DNA from: Paracoccaceae bacterium
Lineage (GTDB): Bacteria; Pseudomonadota; Alphaproteobacteria; Rhodobacterales; Rhodobacteraceae
NCBI GenBank assembly: GCA_021741245.1
Contig: JAIOYF010000004.1
Coordinates: forward strand, 350,990-414,989
Direction of reading: 5' to 3'
DNA length: 64,000 bases
Shown: positions 3,680 through 61,831 of the stretch, one piece after another
How positions within the stretch are numbered: the stretch's first letter is position 1
Layout of the letters: each line of letters starts with the position of its first letter
Program-made: the position numbers and the translations under genes
Notes under the pieces: model-generated
What the model was told of the DNA's origin: nothing
What the model saw: only the letters and a program-made list of their open reading frames with translations
Database searches by the model: none

Positions 3680-6478
3680 ATGACCATATTTGCCAATCGC
3701 CTGACCCGCCAGCCCCGCGCCTTTGACCCTGCCGCCGGGGAAGAGATTTCCGCTGAATTCGCCGATCTGGGGCCAGAATTGGCGGCTCTGCTTGGGTCAA
3801 CCGCAGGGTGCAGCCCCTATTTGCGCGGGCTGATGCGCAAAGAGGCGGTGTGGCTGCGTGCGGCCCTGAGCGATCCACCCGAAACGGCGGTGGCAGCGCA
3901 ATTGGCACAGCTAACGGAGGTTGCGCTTGATGGCCTGCCCGATGCCCTGCGGGTGGCCAAAAGGCGGGTTGCGCTGCTTGCGGGGTTGGCCGATTTGGGG
4001 GGCGTCTGGCCGTTGATGACGGTCACGCAAACGCTGACCGATCTGGCAGATGGTGCCGTCAATCTGGCCATGCGCGCCCTTGTGGCCGAAGAGGTCCGCC
4101 GGGGCAAACTGCCGGGGGCAGGGCCCGATGATGTGGCCACGGCAGGTGGGATGGTCACCCTTGCCATGGGCAAGATGGGCGCGGGGGAATTGAACTATTC
4201 CTCGGACATCGACCTGATTTGCCTCTTTGACGAAACCCGCTATCCGGGGGCCGAGCAAGAGGCCCGCGCCGCCTTTATTCGTGTCACCCGCAAGATGGCT
4301 GCGATGCTGTCGGATCTGACCGCCGAGGGTTATGTGTTTCGCACCGATCTGCGCCTGCGCCCTGATGCCAGTGTGACGCCCGTTTGCCTGTCGATGGCCG
4401 CCGCCGAGGCCTATTATGAAAGCGTGGGCCGCACGTGGGAGCGCGCCGCCTATATCAAGGCGCGGCCTTGTGGCGGTGATCTTGCGGCGGGGCAGCGGTT
4501 CTTGCGCATGTTGACCCCGTTTATCTGGCGCAAACATCTGGATTTCGCCGCCATTCAAGATGCCCATGACATGCGTCTGCGGATCCGTGATCACCGGGGG
4601 TTGCACGGCCCCCTTGCGGTCGAGGGGCATAACATGAAGCTGGGGATGGGGGGGATTCGGGAGATTGAGTTCTTTACCCAGACCCGGCAGCTGATTGCCG
4701 GGGGGCGCGATCCCGACCTGCGGGGCAGAACCACCATAGGGGGGCTGTCTGCCCTTGCGCAAAAGGGTTGGGTGCCGCCTGATGTGGCGCAAGAGTTGAC
4801 GACCCTTTACACCGCACACCGCGAGGTCGAGCATCGTCTGCAAATGGTGGGCGATGCGCAAACCCACGATATTCCAAGCACGCCCGAAGGTGTGGCGCGG
4901 ATCGCGGCCTTTTGCGGACAAGATGACGCGGCGTTTCGCAAGGATTTGCTGGACCGACTTGCGCGGGTGGATGTGCTGACTGACGGCTTCTTTGCGCCGG
5001 GGCAGGTGGAAGCCGCGCCCGAGATGGACCCCGCCACACGCCAGATCGTCGAGGGCTGGCAGCATTATCCCGCCCTGCGCTCAGACCGCGCCCAAACGAT
5101 CTTTCGGCGCCTTCGGCCACAGCTATTGAAACAACTTGCCCGCGCCGCCCATCCGGATGAGGCACTGCGCGCCTTTGACGGATTTTTGGCGGGGCTGCCC
5201 ACGGGTGTGCAAATCTTTTCGCTGTTTGAGGCGAACCCGACCCTTGTCGAACTGATCATCGATATCGCGGGCACCTCGCCGCAACTGGCCTTGTATCTGT
5301 CGCGCCATGCGGGTGTTCTGGATGCCGTGATCGGGGGCAGTTTCTGGGCTCCTTGGCCGGGGCTGGGCGCATTGGTGGCAGAGCTTTCGGCGCAACTGGA
5401 GGCTGTGGGCGACTATGAGAAAAAGCTCGACACGGCCCGCCGCTGGAAGAAGGAATGGCACTTCCGCATCGGGGTGCATCATCTGCGCGGCCTGATTGAC
5501 GCGTTCGAGGCGGGCAAATCCTATGCGGATCTGGCCGAGGCGATCATCAAGGCCCTCTGGCCCGTGGTCTGCGATGAGTTTTCCCGCCGTCATGGCCCGC
5601 CACCGGGTCGAGGGGCAGTTTTGATGGGTATGGGGTCACTGGGGGCGTCGCGGTTGAACGCGGCCTCGGATCTGGATCTGATCGTGATCTATGACCCGAT
5701 GGGCGTGGAGCAGTCTGATGGGCCCAAGCCCTTGGCCACGCGCCCTTATTTTGCGAGGCTCACGCAAACAATGGTCACGGCGCTGACCGCCCAGATGCCC
5801 GAAGGACGGCTTTATGAGGTGGACATGCGCCTGCGCCCCTCTGGTCGGCAAGGGCCGGTAGCCACCAGTTTGCAGAGTTTTTGCAGCTATCAAGAAACCG
5901 AAGCCTGGACATGGGAGCATCTGGCCCTGACCCGTGCGCGGGTCTTGGTCGGGGACGCGTCCCTTGGCGCGGATGTCGAGGCGTTTCGCCGAACCTTGTT
6001 GCGGGCAAAGGGGCAGGGGGCCACGGTCCGTGCCGATGTTGCCGCGATGCGAGAGCGGTTGCAGGCCGCCAAACCCGCCAAAGGCAGTTGGGAGGCAAAG
6101 AACGGCCCCGGTCGTTTGATGGACATCGAACTTTGCGCCCAGATGGCCTGCCTGATCGCAGGCAGCCCCGCCCGCGGGGTTGAGCGGCAAATTGCGGCGG
6201 GGGCGGCGGCTGGGGTGTCGCAATCGGATCAGTCTGCGCTCTCGTCGGCCTATAGGGTGCTTTGGCAGTTGCAATGCGGTGCACGGCTGCTATCCGAAGG
6301 CACGATTGACTTGGATGCCATCGGAGAGGGCGGTCGCGCCTTTTTGCTGCGCGAGACGGGGCAGGCCAATGCGCAAGACCTTTCAGCGCATCTGGATGAG
6401 GTGACAGCCCTTGCCGAGGCTGTGATCGCAGCACAGGTTAAGGGGGCAGAGGAATGGGGAGACGGGCCGTGCGTGTAG
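3680..6478 (+). CDS. glnE: Bifunctional glutamine synthetase adenylyltransferase/adenylyl-removing enzyme
   Basis: ~930-aa ORF with two nucleotidyltransferase modules (GKMGAGELNYSSDIDLI and MGSLGASRLNAASDLDLIVIY), each followed by a GlnE-type helical domain. Confidence 0.9.
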   Translation: MTIFANRLTRQPRAFDPAAGEEISAEFADLGPELAALLGSTAGCSPYLRGLMRKEAVWLRAALSDPPETAVAAQLAQLTEVALDGLPDALRVAKRRVALLAGLADLGGVWPLMTVTQTLTDLADGAVNLAMRALVAEEVRRGKLPGAGPDDVATAGGMVTLAMGKMGAGELNYSSDIDLICLFDETRYPGAEQEARAAFIRVTRKMAAMLSDLTAEGYVFRTDLRLRPDASVTPVCLSMAAAEAYYESVGRTWERAAYIKARPCGGDLAAGQRFLRMLTPFIWRKHLDFAAIQDAHDMRLRIRDHRGLHGPLAVEGHNMKLGMGGIREIEFFTQTRQLIAGGRDPDLRGRTTIGGLSALAQKGWVPPDVAQELTTLYTAHREVEHRLQMVGDAQTHDIPSTPEGVARIAAFCGQDDAAFRKDLLDRLARVDVLTDGFFAPGQVEAAPEMDPATRQIVEGWQHYPALRSDRAQTIFRRLRPQLLKQLARAAHPDEALRAFDGFLAGLPTGVQIFSLFEANPTLVELIIDIAGTSPQLALYLSRHAGVLDAVIGGSFWAPWPGLGALVAELSAQLEAVGDYEKKLDTARRWKKEWHFRIGVHHLRGLIDAFEAGKSYADLAEAIIKALWPVVCDEFSRRHGPPPGRGAVLMGMGSLGASRLNAASDLDLIVIYDPMGVEQSDGPKPLATRPYFARLTQTMVTALTAQMPEGRLYEVDMRLRPSGRQGPVATSLQSFCSYQETEAWTWEHLALTRARVLVGDASLGADVEAFRRTLLRAKGQGATVRADVAAMRERLQAAKPAKGSWEAKNGPGRLMDIELCAQMACLIAGSPARGVERQIAAGAAAGVSQSDQSALSSAYRVLWQLQCGARLLSEGTIDLDAIGEGGRAFLLRETGQANAQDLSAHLDEVTALAEAVIAAQVKGAEEWGDGPCV

Positions 6479-56822: not shown

Positions 56823-57602
56823 TCAGGGGGCAAGGGTGATCCAGACCGGCACGTGGTCCGACGGTTTGTCGCCCGCGCGTACCTCTTTATCAATGCCCAC
56901 GCCCGTCAGGCGGTCGGCAGCCTGCGGCGATAAAAGCAGGTGATCAATGCGGATGCCGTTGTTCCGTTCCCAGGCATTGGCCTGATAATCCCAGAACGAA
57001 TAATGCCCCGGCCCCTGCACCCGCGCCCGAAATGCATCGGTCAGGCCAAGATTGAGCATCTTGCGATAAGCTTCGCGTGTTTGTGGCAGATAGAGCGCGT
57101 CGTCCTTCCAGGCCTCTGGTTTTGCGGCATCTTCGGCCTGTGGGATAACATTATAGTCGCCTGCGCAGACAAACGCTTCTTCCGCCGACAGCATTGCGCG
57201 CACCCGCGCCTCCATGCGAGCCATCCATGCCAGTTTGTAATCATATTTCGGCCCTGGAACCGGATTGCCGTTGGGCAGGTAAAGACCACAGACCCGAACC
57301 GGACGCTCTGCCATGACAACCGCTTCGATCCAGCGGGATTGCTCATCACTGTCATCTCCGGGCAGGCCACGGCTGACATCTTCAAGCGGCAGACGCGACA
57401 AGATGGCCACGCCGTTAAAGCCCTTTTGACCGTGGGTTTCTACCCGGTATCCCATGTCTTCAAAAAGCTCGCGGGGAAACCCTTCATCAACGGATTTGAT
57501 CTCTTGTAGGCAGACCACATCGGGGGTTTTGGCCGAAAGCCAGCGGGGCAGGGCCTCAATCCTTGCTTTGATCCCGTTGATGTTGAACGTGGCGATGTGC
57601 AT
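56823..57602 (-). CDS. xthA: Exodeoxyribonuclease III
   Basis: MHIATFNINGI N-terminus, CLQE, and a C-terminal SDHVPV motif. Confidence 0.9.
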   Translation of the reverse strand: MHIATFNINGIKARIEALPRWLSAKTPDVVCLQEIKSVDEGFPRELFEDMGYRVETHGQKGFNGVAILSRLPLEDVSRGLPGDDSDEQSRWIEAVVMAERPVRVCGLYLPNGNPVPGPKYDYKLAWMARMEARVRAMLSAEEAFVCAGDYNVIPQAEDAAKPEAWKDDALYLPQTREAYRKMLNLGLTDAFRARVQGPGHYSFWDYQANAWERNNGIRIDHLLLSPQAADRLTGVGIDKEVRAGDKPSDHVPVWITLAP

Positions 57603-57810
57603 GGGGCCCTCCATTTGCCCTTAGGTATCGGGCATCCTCAGACCCGAAGCAAGCCACGCCACCCAAGTGGTTCCGCCAAAGAGGACCGCCTCCACAATCA
57701 AAAAGGGAGAGGTCGAAAAATAATTCAATTTAAACGGGAAAATATCTTGTCAGAATCGCTTTTGGGTTGATAGCCTGACTTCGTTAGCTGTTTACAACCT
57801 GGAGGTTATT

Positions 57811-58005
57811 ATGAATTCCAACACTGCAACTGTTCTGCGTCAAGAAACCATCGCACTCGTTTCCAAAGAAGCCGATATGCTGTCGGGTTCCGAGACGGTC
57901 ATGATGACCAGCGTCGCTTTGGACGCGATCGCTCAGCGTAGCGGTGCTGCCGACATGATCTGTGGCGCGAACGCGTTCATGATGACAAGCGTCGCTGACC
58001 TGTAA
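57811..58005 (+). CDS. 64-aa peptide with a duplicated 19-residue module (candidate precursor or scaffold peptide)
   Basis: GGAGG (57801-57805) sits 5 nt before the ATG. The product is MNSNTATVLRQETIALVSKEADMLSGSETVMMTSVALDAIAQRSGAADMICGANAFMMTSVADL. A 20-nt DNA repeat tcatgatgacNagcgtcgct occurs at 57899-57918 and 57977-57996. Confidence 0.6.
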   Translation: MNSNTATVLRQETIALVSKEADMLSGSETVMMTSVALDAIAQRSGAADMICGANAFMMTSVADL

Positions 58006-58012
58006 GCCTTTC

Positions 58013-58051
58013 GGGGACGGTCTTGCATCTTGTCGATGCAATGCCGTCCCC
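58013..58051 (+). promoter_or_regulatory. Strong intercistronic stem-loop after the peptide gene
   Basis: GGGGACGG tc TTGCATC ttgtc GATGCAA tg CCGTCCCC, i.e. 8+7 bp with a 2x2 internal loop. It begins 8 nt after the stop and has no U-tract. Confidence 0.6.
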
Positions 58052-58070
58052 AAAACATCAGAGGCAAGTG

Positions 58071-59138
58071 ATGTCCAATGTCGTATCCTTGCGGCGCGCT
58101 GAGCCTTGCAGTTCAGTGCCTGCGCACAATGAATTGATTGATCTTTTTGCCAATCGTCGTCGGGGACGGCGTGACGCTTACTGGTTGAAAGAGAATGCCG
58201 AACTCTTGCAGGTGCTTTTGGCAAGCAGGGGTTCGATGACCGAAGAACTGGATCTGTCGCCCTATGCGGGATTTATCGCATCAATGGTCGAAGATTTGCA
58301 GTTTTTCCCACAGTATTATCGGCTTTTCCTGTCAATGGCCCTTGATCTGGCAGCCCTTGGGATGCCACAGGTTCCCGTGGTAGAAATTGCAAAGTTCATT
58401 GTCGATCAGGATCTAACCGAGATTGAGCTTTCCGACAGCCACCGTGCCGAGGCGCGCTTGCTTCTGTCACGGGCGGGTCATGTTTTGCCCGGGGATGAGG
58501 AACTGGCGTTGAGGTTGGCGTCATTCGCGCGCAAAAGCGCGCTCTTTTGCCTTCCCAATCGCCAACTCGCCTATGCGCTGACGCATACCGTGTTTCACGC
58601 CTCGGATTATGGGCGCAATGCTATGTCACCTTGCGCTGATCGCAGGCTCGCGCTGATGAATGTCGGGATTGTCGCTTGGTTGGAGGACAATCTGGATCTT
58701 TTGTCCGAAGTGGTGGTCGCGCTGCGCCTTTCGGGCGAGCATGTTCCAGACGTGTGGCGTCAGGCTATCGCGCAGGCGGTGCAATCGCTTGCGGCGGAAA
58801 CCGGGCCCGAACTGGGACCATTCGATGATGCCTATCACGAATATCTGGTCCTGAATTGGGCGCATGCGATGAGCGGCGGTTCTGTCTTTGCGGCCCCTAT
58901 GGCCTCTGGTGCGCGGTATTTCCGCCGTACCAAAGGGGCTGATGCTGCCCTGCGGGATCTGTCGATCTGTTTGCTAAACATGGGGGATGGCCGCAGTCAG
59001 GATTGGGCGCGCATGCGCTGGCGCATCTGGCCAAAGCTATCAATACCGGTTCGGGCAAGGATCGAGGCAATCGAAACGCTCCCCGAATTCACCCAATTTT
59101 TCAATGGCTTTGCTCGGGTAGCACAGGTGAACACATGA
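58071..59138 (+). CDS. Hypothetical 355-aa protein, predicted helical, no family recognised
   Basis: ORF 58023..59138. The ATG at 58071 has GAGG 7 nt upstream, whereas the TTG at 58023 lies inside the hairpin. His-containing motifs: LTHTVFHASDYG and DDAYHEYLVLNWAH. Confidence 0.7.
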   Translation: MSNVVSLRRAEPCSSVPAHNELIDLFANRRRGRRDAYWLKENAELLQVLLASRGSMTEELDLSPYAGFIASMVEDLQFFPQYYRLFLSMALDLAALGMPQVPVVEIAKFIVDQDLTEIELSDSHRAEARLLLSRAGHVLPGDEELALRLASFARKSALFCLPNRQLAYALTHTVFHASDYGRNAMSPCADRRLALMNVGIVAWLEDNLDLLSEVVVALRLSGEHVPDVWRQAIAQAVQSLAAETGPELGPFDDAYHEYLVLNWAHAMSGGSVFAAPMASGARYFRRTKGADAALRDLSICLLNMGDGRSQDWARMRWRIWPKLSIPVRARIEAIETLPEFTQFFNGFARVAQVNT

Positions 59139-60067
59139 TGCGACGACTGGAAAACCCATTGGTCGCCGGCGTTTTGCTTTTATGCCTGTCGACGCTTGCC
59201 GGAACTTTGGCGGACGGAACCGTCAAGAAACTTTCGATAGAGATTGAGGCGCCACAGGTTTTCTTTCTGTCGGGCCTGATCATGGCAGGGTTAAGCTATC
59301 TGTCGGCGACGGCACGCTCCAAAATGGGGGCACGCCGAACAAGTTGTTTGCGCACATCCGAGCCGTTGTTGCTGTTTTGGCGTTGTGTGGCCACCGTGGC
59401 GGCCTCGCTCGGCTTTTTCTATGCCGTGGCGCTGATCCCATTGGCCGAGATCTTTCTGTTCGTCGGGATGATGCCGCTGATGTCAGCGCTGTTGTCGCGG
59501 GCGATGTTGCGCGAAACGGTCCATGCTGGCGATTGGTTTGGTCTGGCGATTGGGATGATTGGGGTTGCGATGCTGTTTCCCCATGGATTTTCGGGCCTTA
59601 CCCTAGGCCATCTTGCGGGGTTTGCTGGTGCGCTGTCGGGAACCGTTTCTCTGGTCCTGTCACGCATGATCGCACGACGTGAAATCAATGCGCTGGTGCA
59701 GGTTTTTTACCCCAATCTGGCATTGGCGATTGTGGCGATGATCTTGTTGCCTTCGGTCTGGCGGCCGATGGGTTTGTTGGTCACAGGGCAAATCATGCTC
59801 TATTCCGGGCTGCTGTTCTTGGCGCGTTGGTCGATGGTTTTGGTGATGCAGCGCCTGCGCGCGCCAGTTGCCCTGCCGCTGATGAATGTGCAATTCGTCT
59901 GGATGGTGGCTGTGGGGCTTTTGTTCTTTGGCGAGGTGCCGGCCATCGCCACGCTTCTCGGGGCTGGTCTTGTGATGGTCGCGGGTGTGGTTGCCCTTGG
60001 TGAACAGGCCCGGCTTGACCGGATCGCCGCCGCGCGCGCGCCGCGCGATGTGGTTGCCGCCGAATAG
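59135..60067 (+). CDS. DMT superfamily (EamA-like) transporter
   Basis: ~10 hydrophobic segments over ~310 aa. Its ATG overlaps the upstream stop (ATGA). Confidence 0.75.
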   Translation: MMRRLENPLVAGVLLLCLSTLAGTLADGTVKKLSIEIEAPQVFFLSGLIMAGLSYLSATARSKMGARRTSCLRTSEPLLLFWRCVATVAASLGFFYAVALIPLAEIFLFVGMMPLMSALLSRAMLRETVHAGDWFGLAIGMIGVAMLFPHGFSGLTLGHLAGFAGALSGTVSLVLSRMIARREINALVQVFYPNLALAIVAMILLPSVWRPMGLLVTGQIMLYSGLLFLARWSMVLVMQRLRAPVALPLMNVQFVWMVAVGLLFFGEVPAIATLLGAGLVMVAGVVALGEQARLDRIAAARAPRDVVAAE

Positions 60068-60137: not shown

Positions 60138-60470
60138 TTACATCGAAAATGAGGTGCCACAGCCACAGCTGCTAGAGGCATTCGGGTTTTGAATAACAAA
60201 ACGCGCACCAATCAGCTCTTCCGTAAAGTCGATCACCGCATTTTGCAAAAACGGCAGTGAGACCTGATCGACCAGAACCTTTTGGCCGTCTTTTTCCAGC
60301 ACCAGATCGTCGCCCACCGGGTCATCAAGCCGAATGTCATATTGAAAGCCCGAGCATCCGCCGCCATCAACCGCGACACGCAGGGCCTTTTGCTGGCCCG
60401 TTGCCTCGGCGATTTCGGCCAGCCGGGCAAAGGCACGGTCGGTCACGCGGGGGGGCAGAGTAAGTTCCAT
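60138..60470 (-). CDS. erpA: Iron-sulfur cluster insertion protein (HesB/IscA family, ErpA-like)
   Basis: GGCSGFQY and C-terminal CGCGTSFSM motifs. The ATG at 60470 gives 110 aa. Confidence 0.85.
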   Translation of the reverse strand: MELTLPPRVTDRAFARLAEIAEATGQQKALRVAVDGGGCSGFQYDIRLDDPVGDDLVLEKDGQKVLVDQVSLPFLQNAVIDFTEELIGARFVIQNPNASSSCGCGTSFSM

Positions 60471-60601
60471 GGTGCGCATCCTGTAAAAGGGACCTGTGGA
60501 GTAGATATAGGCCTCGAACGGGGGTGTCGCAAGGCGATGCATGCCCTAAAGCATTTGCCGCAAGACTCTGTTCGCCTCCGGTTTATCGGCCTATAGTCAA
60601 C

Positions 60602-61831
60602 ATGAAACAATTGACCGGATCCGCAATGCTTGCGCCCTTTGCCTGCCAACCCACCGCCTCACACGGGCGACTTCACCAAGAACGGATGTCATCCTTTCGG
60701 TCTCCCTTTCAGCGTGATCGTGACCGGATCATCCATTCCAGCGCCTTTCGCAGACTGAAACACAAGACGCAGGTTTTTGTGGAGCATGAAGGGGATTACT
60801 ACCGCACCCGCCTGACCCATTCGATCGAGGTGGCACAGGTGGCGCGCACCATTGCGGGTGTGCTGGGGCTGAACACCGATCTGGCCGAGGCCATCGCGCT
60901 GGCACATGATCTGGGGCACACGCCCTTTGGCCATACGGGCGAGGATGCCATGGGCGCGCTGATGGCACCCTATGGCGGCTTTGATCACAACGCGCAGGCG
61001 CTGCGGATCGTAACGCGTCTGGAACGGCACTATGCCGATTTTGATGGCCTGAACCTGACATGGGAAAGTCTGGAAGGGATCGCCAAGCACAACGGCCCCG
61101 TCACCGGCCCCAATGCCGATGCAAAACACGCGGGCCCCTTGCCCTATGCGCTGGCCGAGGTGAATGCGGATTGGGATCTGGAACTGCACACCCATGCCTC
61201 GGCCGAGGCGCAGGTGGCGGCGATTGCGGACGATGTCGCCTATTCCCACCATGATCTGCATGATGGTTTGCGTTCGGGCCTGTTTTCGGAAGAAGATCTG
61301 ATGGACCTGCCGGTAACCGGCCCCGCCTTTGCCGAGGTGGATGCGTTTTATCCCGGTCTGGACAAGATGCGCCGCCGGCATGAGGCGCTGCGCCGGGTGT
61401 TTGGCCGAATGGTCGAGGATGTGATTGCGGTGGCGCAGGGACGACTTGATGCGGCGAAACCCCAATCGGTGGATGATATTCGCCACATGGGCACCACGAT
61501 CATCCGCTTTTCCAAGCCGCTTTACCAAGAGCTCAAGGCGATCCGCTCGTTCTTGTTTCACCGCATGTACCGCGCGCCCTCGGTGATGGCGGTGCGGGTC
61601 AAGGTCACGCAGGTGGTGCATGAGTTATTCACGGCATTTATCGCGGACCCATCGCTGTTGCCGCCCGAATGGCAAGAGGCTGTTCGCACGGCGCAAGATC
61701 AGACGGCATTGGCGCGCGTCATTGCCGATTATGTGGCAGGCATGACAGACCGGTTTGCCATTCAGGAACATGCGCGCCTGTGTGGCGGTGCCTTGATTGA
61801 AACCCACCAAGGACCAGCCTTCCCCACCTGA
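60602..61831 (+). CDS. Deoxyguanosinetriphosphate triphosphohydrolase-like HD-domain protein
   Basis: FQRDRDRIIHSSAFRRL, YRTRLTHSIEV and HDLGHTPFGH motifs. Confidence 0.85.
   Translation: MKQLTGSAMLAPFACQPTASHGRLHQERMSSFRSPFQRDRDRIIHSSAFRRLKHKTQVFVEHEGDYYRTRLTHSIEVAQVARTIAGVLGLNTDLAEAIALAHDLGHTPFGHTGEDAMGALMAPYGGFDHNAQALRIVTRLERHYADFDGLNLTWESLEGIAKHNGPVTGPNADAKHAGPLPYALAEVNADWDLELHTHASAEAQVAAIADDVAYSHHDLHDGLRSGLFSEEDLMDLPVTGPAFAEVDAFYPGLDKMRRRHEALRRVFGRMVEDVIAVAQGRLDAAKPQSVDDIRHMGTTIIRFSKPLYQELKAIRSFLFHRMYRAPSVMAVRVKVTQVVHELFTAFIADPSLLPPEWQEAVRTAQDQTALARVIADYVAGMTDRFAIQEHARLCGGALIETHQGPAFPT

Follow-up and report, generated by a model that had tools for sequence, protein, structure and literature searches.

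The 64-aa open reading frame (ORF) analysed here was interpreted as a multi-core RiPP-like precursor peptide, which the adjacent DUF6902 protein modifies and a neighbouring DMT-family protein exports. A probability of about 0.6 was attached to this reading, for which there is no experimental evidence of either modification or cleavage. The original prediction was made from the window, i.e., the whole 64,000-nucleotide stretch of DNA that was analysed, and it had likened the repeated, core-like modules of the peptide to those of multi-core precursors. This likeness was supported by the adjacency of the peptide and DUF6902 genes among homologs, by variation in module number and by coding selection, while processing of the peptide remains unproven. 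Two features of a RiPP precursor were present: a small translated ORF under purifying selection, and a leader followed by repeated cores with conserved flanks.

Few marine heterotrophs are as abundant or as well studied as the Rhodobacterales (roseobacter group), which are central to algal-bacterial interactions. The wider claim, that DUF6902-processed precursors with 2 to about 21 identical cores and export by the DMT protein represent a new class of peptide natural product, or a peptide-derived signal, near-universal and vertically inherited in marine Roseobacter/Paracoccaceae, was given even odds. If true, at least 505 species representatives would make a short modified peptide, many copies of it from each transcript, as a chemical output that has gone unrecognised and could be a signal specific to each genus; DUF6902 would acquire its first function, and the newly recognised DUF6895 peptide-modifying superfamily would gain a second type of substrate. 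The system is very compact, consisting of one peptide, one putative enzyme and one transporter. Cultured carriers are Shimia thalassica CECT 7735, Pelagimonas varians DSM 23678, Puniceibacterium sediminis DSM 29052 and Salipiger bermudensis HTCC2601; since cultured type strains possess the operon, the hypothesis is directly testable.

Coding selection on the 64-aa ORF

Judged by comparison with homologous sequences, the 64-aa ORF is a real, conserved gene under purifying selection. Its translation is MNSNTATVLRQETIALVSKEADMLSGSETVMMTSVALDAIAQRSGAADMICGANAFMMTSVADL; the GenBank entry (MCF8485295.1), labelled 'hypothetical protein', derives from a metagenome-assembled genome of Rhodobacteraceae/Paracoccaceae. 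Eight 64-aa homologs of the window peptide were present in public data, without any departure from 64 codons, and gene callers predicted the ORF on independent contigs. Pairwise comparison with the DNA of six distinct 64-aa homologs produced dN/dS values of 0.04-0.22; where the window sequence departed from a homolog with 95% identity, 19 of the differences were synonymous and 4 non-synonymous. Variable columns were concentrated at third codon positions (25, 16 and 49 at positions 1, 2 and 3 respectively). The original prediction would have failed if synonymous and non-synonymous changes had been equally frequent, or if the ORF had been absent beside homologs of the downstream genes. In the event, synonymous changes were far in excess and the ORF was retained beside DUF6902 homologs (see below), so neither outcome was realised.

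The hexapeptide MMTSVA was invariant as protein in both of its copies across seven homologous DNAs, and the third positions of its Thr, Val and Ala codons varied; the DNA similarity of the two cores was therefore attributed to amino acid constraint. The antisense frame had acquired stop codons in some homologs, and an Rfam search of positions 57400-58300 (E up to 1) returned no match. A role at the RNA level had previously been left open because the ORF contains palindromes; this was not borne out, given the lack of an Rfam match, the variation at third positions and the restriction of core wobble to synonymous sites.

Organisation of the locus

The operon comprises the peptide gene, a strong stem-loop, the DUF6902 gene and a translationally coupled DMT/EamA transporter gene, and its position in the chromosome, between xthA and erpA/dgt, is fixed (Table 1). 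This order, i.e., xthA(-), peptide, DUF6902, DMT(+), erpA(-), dgt(+), was conserved in 80 loci. Among 63 full-length loci, the exonuclease III-like gene was upstream in every case, the DMT gene was directly downstream of DUF6902 in 55 and the dGTPase was syntenic in 57. The ErpA-like homolog was found in 70 of the 80 loci, and its counterpart on a homologous contig carries PF01521 (Fe-S_biosyn). The start codon of the DMT gene (ATG, 59135) overlaps the stop codon of DUF6902 (TGA, 59136-59138), and the same ATGA overlap was called on other contigs; GenBank names the product a 'DMT family transporter'.

Table 1. Positions of the peptide gene, its parts and the neighbouring features in the window
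Feature	Position	Strand	Evidence
Divergent exonuclease III-like gene (flank; boundary, outside the system)	56823..57614	-	Pfam (Exo_endo_phos)
Promoter-like block: GAATC, 13 nt, TAGCCTG	57753..57777	+	Conservation of register upstream of the peptide gene
Ribosome-binding site GGAGG, 5 nt before ATG	57801..57805	+	Sequence
Repeat peptide gene, candidate multi-core precursor, 64 aa	57811..58005	+	Translation, homologs, dN/dS, gene callers
Leader-like N-terminal segment, residues 1-19, MNSNTATVLRQETIALVSK	57811..57867	+	N-terminal conservation within clade
Module 1, residues 20-38, EADMLSGSETVMMTSVALD; core MMTSVA at 57901-57918	57868..57924	+	
Module 2, residues 46-64, AADMICGANAFMMTSVADL; core MMTSVA at 57979-57996; C-terminal end of protein	57946..58002	+	
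GC-rich stem-loop between peptide and DUF6902 genes	58013..58051	+	Folding, inverted repeat
DUF6902 protein, 355 aa, candidate peptide-modifying enzyme	58071..59138	+	Pfam
DMT/EamA-family transporter, 310 aa, candidate exporter	59135..60067	+	Pfam (EamA)
Convergent small gene, ErpA/IscA-like (flank; closes the operon)	60138..60542	-	Synteny
dGTP triphosphohydrolase (flank)	60524..61831	+	Pfam (HD, HD_assoc); NCBIfam NF002328 (E 1e-162)

Upstream of the peptide gene, GAATC-N13-TAGC(G/C)TG was found in register, approximately 35-60 nt before the ATG, at 16 window-clade loci, and a scan of this region for sigma-70 consensus sequences found nothing. The block could be a non-sigma-70 promoter or the binding site of a regulator; a promoter function is an inference. 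The ribosome-binding site was kept in 14 of 16 aligned upstream regions.

The stem-loop begins 8 nt past the stop codon of the peptide gene and lacks a U-tract. Its minimum free energy was -35.7 kcal/mol (z = -5.55), and none of 200 shuffled sequences folded as well. Of the 14 window-clade loci shown, most had a comparable GC-rich stem-loop of different sequence past the stop codon; the exception without one among the loci shown (L013) is not a member of the window clade. A scan for consensus intrinsic terminators found none, and the function of this structure as a partial terminator or transcript stabiliser, for which it is a candidate, can only be inferred for that reason. A 16-nt direct repeat (81% identical) was observed between 57888-57903, where module 1 is encoded, and 58010-58025, in the 5' arm of the stem-loop; this could in principle give alternative pairing, yet it is probably due to chance.

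Within about 5 kb of the locus there was no gene for a protease or a known RiPP enzyme, and no RRE domain. A putative neutral zinc metallopeptidase (PF04228; 63026-63877) lies 5 kb downstream. It was syntenic in only 8 of 80 loci; it was therefore rejected as a partner and is probably not the protease that releases the product. A defence or phage origin was also rejected, there being no PADLOC match and only two PHROGs families of unknown function, both of which concerned the transporter.

The peptide and its two modules

The description of the repeats in the original prediction proved accurate in most respects. Recounting from the translation confirmed that residues 20-38 and 46-64 align without gaps and with 10 of 19 identities, including MMTSVA; 19-mers begun one residue earlier (S18, S44) shared 11 of 19. 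Among 5000 shuffled peptides, the best non-overlapping 19-mer self-match was never greater than 8 (mean 4.8). The second copy does end the protein, since MMTSVA is followed only by two residues and then the stop codon, giving a C-terminus of MMTSVADL (i.e., M-T-S-V-A-D-L). The 20-mer tcatgatgacNagcgtcgct was present twice, as described (57899-57918 and 57977-57996, 78 nt apart), and repeat searches identified a 48-nt direct repeat at this spacing (57871-57918 and 57949-57996; 73% identical). Both reported palindromes, GCGATCGC (57925-57932) and GAACGCGTTC (57969-57978), were also located inside the ORF, and the window contained no further copies of the core beyond the two in the 64-aa ORF. The exception was the single cysteine (C51), to which attention had been drawn, and which was not conserved, being T, S or A in homologs. 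Within the leader, M1, N4, A6 and L9 were kept across the window clade.

In one ENA protein (P0006, 106 aa), a fragment of a short-chain dehydrogenase formed the N-terminal part and was fused to the peptide's final 48 residues. This is probably a chimera introduced by assembly or gene calling; the source contig is 647 nt long.

A family of repeat peptides in Rhodobacterales

A profile built from 30 DUF6902 proteins detected the family in no fewer than 505 GTDB species representatives, and the best 80 of these belonged exclusively to the Rhodobacterales. The expectation that similar small ORFs would lie beside homologs of the 355-aa gene was met: in a motif-free test of 154 loci, including 80 from metagenomes, a repeat-peptide ORF was directly upstream in 147. 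In a motif search, the repeat ORF ended 26-165 nt upstream of DUF6902 in 74 of 81 loci. Loci without a repeat ORF were those with masked sequence or degenerate modules, or belonged to a distant low-GC lineage. Variation in module number between genomes, the second point on which the original prediction could be checked, was extensive (2 to about 21).

Members of the family were roughly 60-420 aa in length, and the window peptide was the shortest. In total, 573 modules were counted in 74 peptides. The cores were near-identical within one peptide (mean uniformity of 0.94) and different between genera, with 19 different dominant cores between genomes; they included MMTSVA, MFTSGS, MFTSGL, MFTSSM, FTSWSGP and FTSCA, to which metagenomes added ICCSDP, MPCSN, HSSGS and FITSM. 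In the window clade, the core MMTS(V/I)A occurred 2 to 8 times. On the wider reading of a new peptide class, cores specific to each genus would point to a molecule used in lineage-specific signalling or interaction.

When the hydrophobic residue of the module was placed at position 0, the N-terminal side was characterised by G at -6 (82%), D/E at -5, V/T at -3, E/Q/G at -2 and M/L/A at -1. The core itself consisted of F/M/Y at 0, T/S/C at +1, S at +2 (95%) and two variable residues, often with A/G-P next. The shortest repeat period was 8 residues (MMTSVASS, LFTSGSTA, MFTSGLVQ), which implies a core of about six residues. In 49 of 74 peptides the sequence stopped exactly at +4, 5 residues from F/M, resulting in the terminus F-x-S-x-x-COOH. 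A, S, T and G together accounted for 53% of the residues, D+E for 12% and K+R for 3%.

In module 1 of the window peptide, positions -6, -1, 0, +1 and +2 were occupied by G, M, M, T and S respectively, in agreement with this profile. A family HMM was trained on 55 FTS-type peptides only, using their leader and first module; it awarded the window peptide 22.4 bits, while the best of 3000 shuffles obtained 8.8 bits, and residues 12-34 (the last 8 leader residues plus module 1) were aligned to the FTS-type junction. Therefore, the window peptide was accepted as genuinely belonging to the family, in minimal form. Neither Pfam nor NCBIfam contained a model that matched the window peptide or five of its relatives (NCBIfam E up to 10), and no relevant paper was found in the literature on DUF6902, the core sequences, or RiPPs in the roseobacter group or Rhodobacterales. 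The multi-core precursor is already known as a concept; there appears to be no earlier description of the peptide family, the enzyme family, the core motif or their phyletic distribution.

The extreme peptide of Puniceibacterium sediminis DSM 29052 (L028, about 3680-4940) was 420 aa long and contained about 20 near-identical GDAVEMFTSGSAP modules, as would be expected if the modules had recently been amplified in tandem or had evolved in concert.

The DUF6902 protein

DUF6902 was by far the best Pfam match to the 355-aa protein (E = 8.1e-98, 328 bits). The sole related family found was DUF6895 (PF21836), which matched residues 18-236 (E = 4.6e-19, 69.3 bits against a cutoff of 23.8). The gathering score of DUF6895 was exceeded by all 11 diverse DUF6902 proteins tested, and a permissive Pfam scan of 11 diverse members returned only DUF6902 and DUF6895 consistently. 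The superfamily is small: a profile search of 1.84 billion representatives placed it in 234 clusters at 50% identity. Neither in that search nor in a third homolog search did the matches listed contain true DUF6895 sequences, only those of DUF6902 type. One member of DUF6895 is, according to the title of the report, a lasso-peptide epimerase (Shi et al., ACS Catal 2026 16:1757, cited in PMC13352647 and PMC13453073).

The AF2 model of the DUF6902 protein was almost all-alpha (pLDDT 90.9, pTM 0.90). Foldseek identified no neighbour of this model in the PDB (best E 0.23, TM 0.31 or less), and comparison of a sequence profile with the PDB produced only noise and no solved relative. No active site could be assigned, because the fold is without a structural neighbour. 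About 50 residues were invariant across 30 DUF6902 homologs, including K40, E44, R84, H172, D209, E213 and H256. When distant low-GC members were added, K40, E44, R84, D209, E213, H256 and two Trp were still invariant, with H172, Y168 and E119/D122 nearly so. Such a pattern suits a catalyst, an activity that is inferred from residue conservation alone.

Proposed mechanism and alternative explanations

In the proposed mechanism, the 64-aa ORF would supply the substrate of a three-gene operon (peptide, DUF6902 and DMT), which is inherited vertically within the Rhodobacterales. The precursor consists of a short leader and then repeated modules, in which a presumed recognition stretch (G, D/E, x, V/T, E/Q, M/L/A) precedes a core of 5-6 residues, comprising hydrophobic F/M, T/S, a nearly invariant S and two lineage-specific residues. 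The DUF6902 protein, predicted to be cytoplasmic and all-alpha with many invariant polar residues, may bind the leader or the module flanks and modify each core. The leading guess for the chemistry involved is acid/base catalysis at C-alpha (L-to-D epimerisation), in or beside the T-S dipeptide, because the lasso-peptide epimerase of DUF6895 is the only experimental anchor available; the analogy is inferred from the title of a paper and a Pfam cross-match, and the activity is untested in any DUF6902 protein. Proteases encoded elsewhere would free many copies of one short modified peptide from each precursor, and the DMT protein would export this peptide or a smaller derivative. The stem-loop might hold the precursor transcript in excess over that of the enzyme, as is the case in many RiPP operons.

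Besides the lack of a nearby protease, RRE domain or known RiPP enzyme, the thin basis of the epimerase analogy and the absence of an assignable active site, two further features were counted against a RiPP-like system. First, the locus has a fixed core-genome position between housekeeping genes, which is unusual for specialised-metabolite clusters; PQQ and mycofactocin are sited in a similar, fixed fashion. Second, the substrates known for DMT transporters are small metabolites, not peptides.

It is possible, if unlikely, that the peptide is instead a functional, unprocessed protein, i.e., an acidic, disordered repeat protein with motifs that bind DUF6902 or some other partner without chemical modification, and that it acts as a scaffold, regulator or inhibitor. 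The acidic composition reported above is prone to disorder, the locus includes no protease or known modifying enzyme, and the top Foldseek matches, weak as they were (E above 0.2), were to alpha-solenoid peptide binders (armadillo, TOG). However, copy number differs ten-fold between close genera, the modules of each gene are near-identical, and 49 of 74 peptides end exactly where the last core ends; these features are more easily reconciled with dosage of a product that is released than with binding at a fixed stoichiometry. Furthermore, many of the approximately 50 invariant DUF6902 residues are charged or are His/Tyr, as would be more typical of a catalyst, and the coupled transporter suggests that a product is exported.

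The common C-terminus of the family recalls the FxSxx-COOH peptides of actinobacteria, whose association with a radical SAM/SPASM enzyme and a zincin peptidase has been described (PMC7159879). On this basis the peptide might be a triceptide-like substrate, with aromatic-x-Ser cross-linked by an unlinked radical SAM enzyme and DUF6902 reduced to an accessory. The F-x-S-x-x-COOH terminus of 49 of the 74 Rhodobacterales relatives is consistent with this, but the window peptide is without it; its clade has Met in place of the aromatic residue, plus two extra C-terminal residues. The two systems also differ in phylum and gene context. Neither a radical SAM/SPASM nor a zincin peptidase gene occurred among the genes flanking the peptide in the window or among those traced across the 80 loci, and no NCBIfam match was obtained for six peptides (E up to 10). 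This explanation was considered improbable.

The case was a little poorer again for a cis-regulatory leader or arrest peptide, whereby stalling of translation near the stop codon would control the stem-loop, and hence read-through into DUF6902 and the transporter. It is true that the strong stem-loop starts just after the stop codon (8 nt), that the last module always abuts the stop, that the downstream gene is a metabolite-type exporter, and that the Met-Met pairs are reminiscent of regulatory codon runs. Yet homologs extend to 420 aa and about 20 modules, which is far beyond any leader peptide, purifying selection operates along the whole peptide, and in other genera the motif is not a single-residue run but F-T-S. 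A U-tract is missing from the stem-loop, and no convincing antiterminator pairing was found, the only candidate being the 16-nt repeat of 81% identity that probably arose by chance. Attenuation leader peptides combine a very short ORF and a regulatory codon run with a terminator/antiterminator, a combination that the window system does not show.

Finally, the suggestion that the ORF is not a gene, and that its 48-nt direct repeat and two palindromes work at the DNA or RNA level, was refuted by the substitution pattern (dN/dS of 0.04-0.22 with third-position wobble), as well as being contradicted by the absence of an Rfam match, the constant 64 codons of eight close homologs and the antisense stop codons found in some homologs, and can be set aside almost entirely.

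Comparison with known systems

Returning to the interpretation of the peptide as a multi-core RiPP-like precursor, the closest comparison for its partner is the DUF6895 epimerase family, since DUF6902 proteins match the DUF6895 model and both are encoded beside a ribosomal peptide. The contexts are different in that there is no lasso cyclase, leader peptidase or RRE near the window locus, and the DUF6895 epimerase reportedly acts on a lasso peptide, whereas a tandem-repeat peptide accompanies DUF6902.

Multi-core precursors with many copies of one core have been described for fungal dikaritins (such as ustiloxin), plant burpitides and orbitides, and bacterial cyanobactins and thiovarsolins (see also the reviews PMC11253845 and PMC9233826). 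These share with the present family a leader and tandem modules, each with a conserved flank and a short core, as well as species-variable copy number and identical cores within one precursor. The enzymes concerned, however, i.e., DUF3328/UstYa oxidases, BURP cyclases, PatA/PatG proteases and YcaO, are absent from the DUF6902 locus, where the partner is an uncharacterised all-alpha protein. With respect to a cyanobactin-type PatA/PatG subtilisin protease or macrocyclase, no protease gene was found in the operon or its flanks. The repetition of one identical core about 20 times is rare among bacterial precursors.

PQQ (PqqA), mycofactocin (MftA) and pantocin A (PaaP) are produced by small, chromosomally fixed operons that convert a ribosomal peptide into a small molecule. 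The operon described here resembles them in being very short, vertically inherited and fixed in its site, and in combining a tiny precursor gene with a putative dedicated enzyme and an exporter of small-molecule type. In contrast to PqqA, MftA and PaaP, where a single core is invariant across taxa, the cores beside DUF6902 are repeated and differ between genera; this makes a universal cofactor a poorer fit than a signal or effector specific to the lineage.

Distant DUF6902 lineages

A small ORF was directly upstream of DUF6902 in four distant low-GC lineages also, sometimes with a signal peptide and a different two-fold motif. In L170 (2937-6044), L171 (3018-6062) and L089 (232-1599), this upstream ORF was 88-94 aa long, had an apparent signal peptide and contained the motifs FY[RQ]GD[FY] and DLY.G.GGAEVP. 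The pairing of an apparently secreted partner with a cytoplasmic-looking DUF6902 protein is unexplained. In L170 and L171, but not in L089, the ORF was itself preceded by a protein of approximately 540 aa without a Pfam match, the N-terminus of which resembles a membrane-bound regulator of the CadC/ToxR type. In L169 (4816-6089), the DUF6902 gene overlapped (ATGA) an upstream ORF of 62 aa that was without repeats and ended in DDDKYFAVMK, and a transposase gene was situated immediately downstream.
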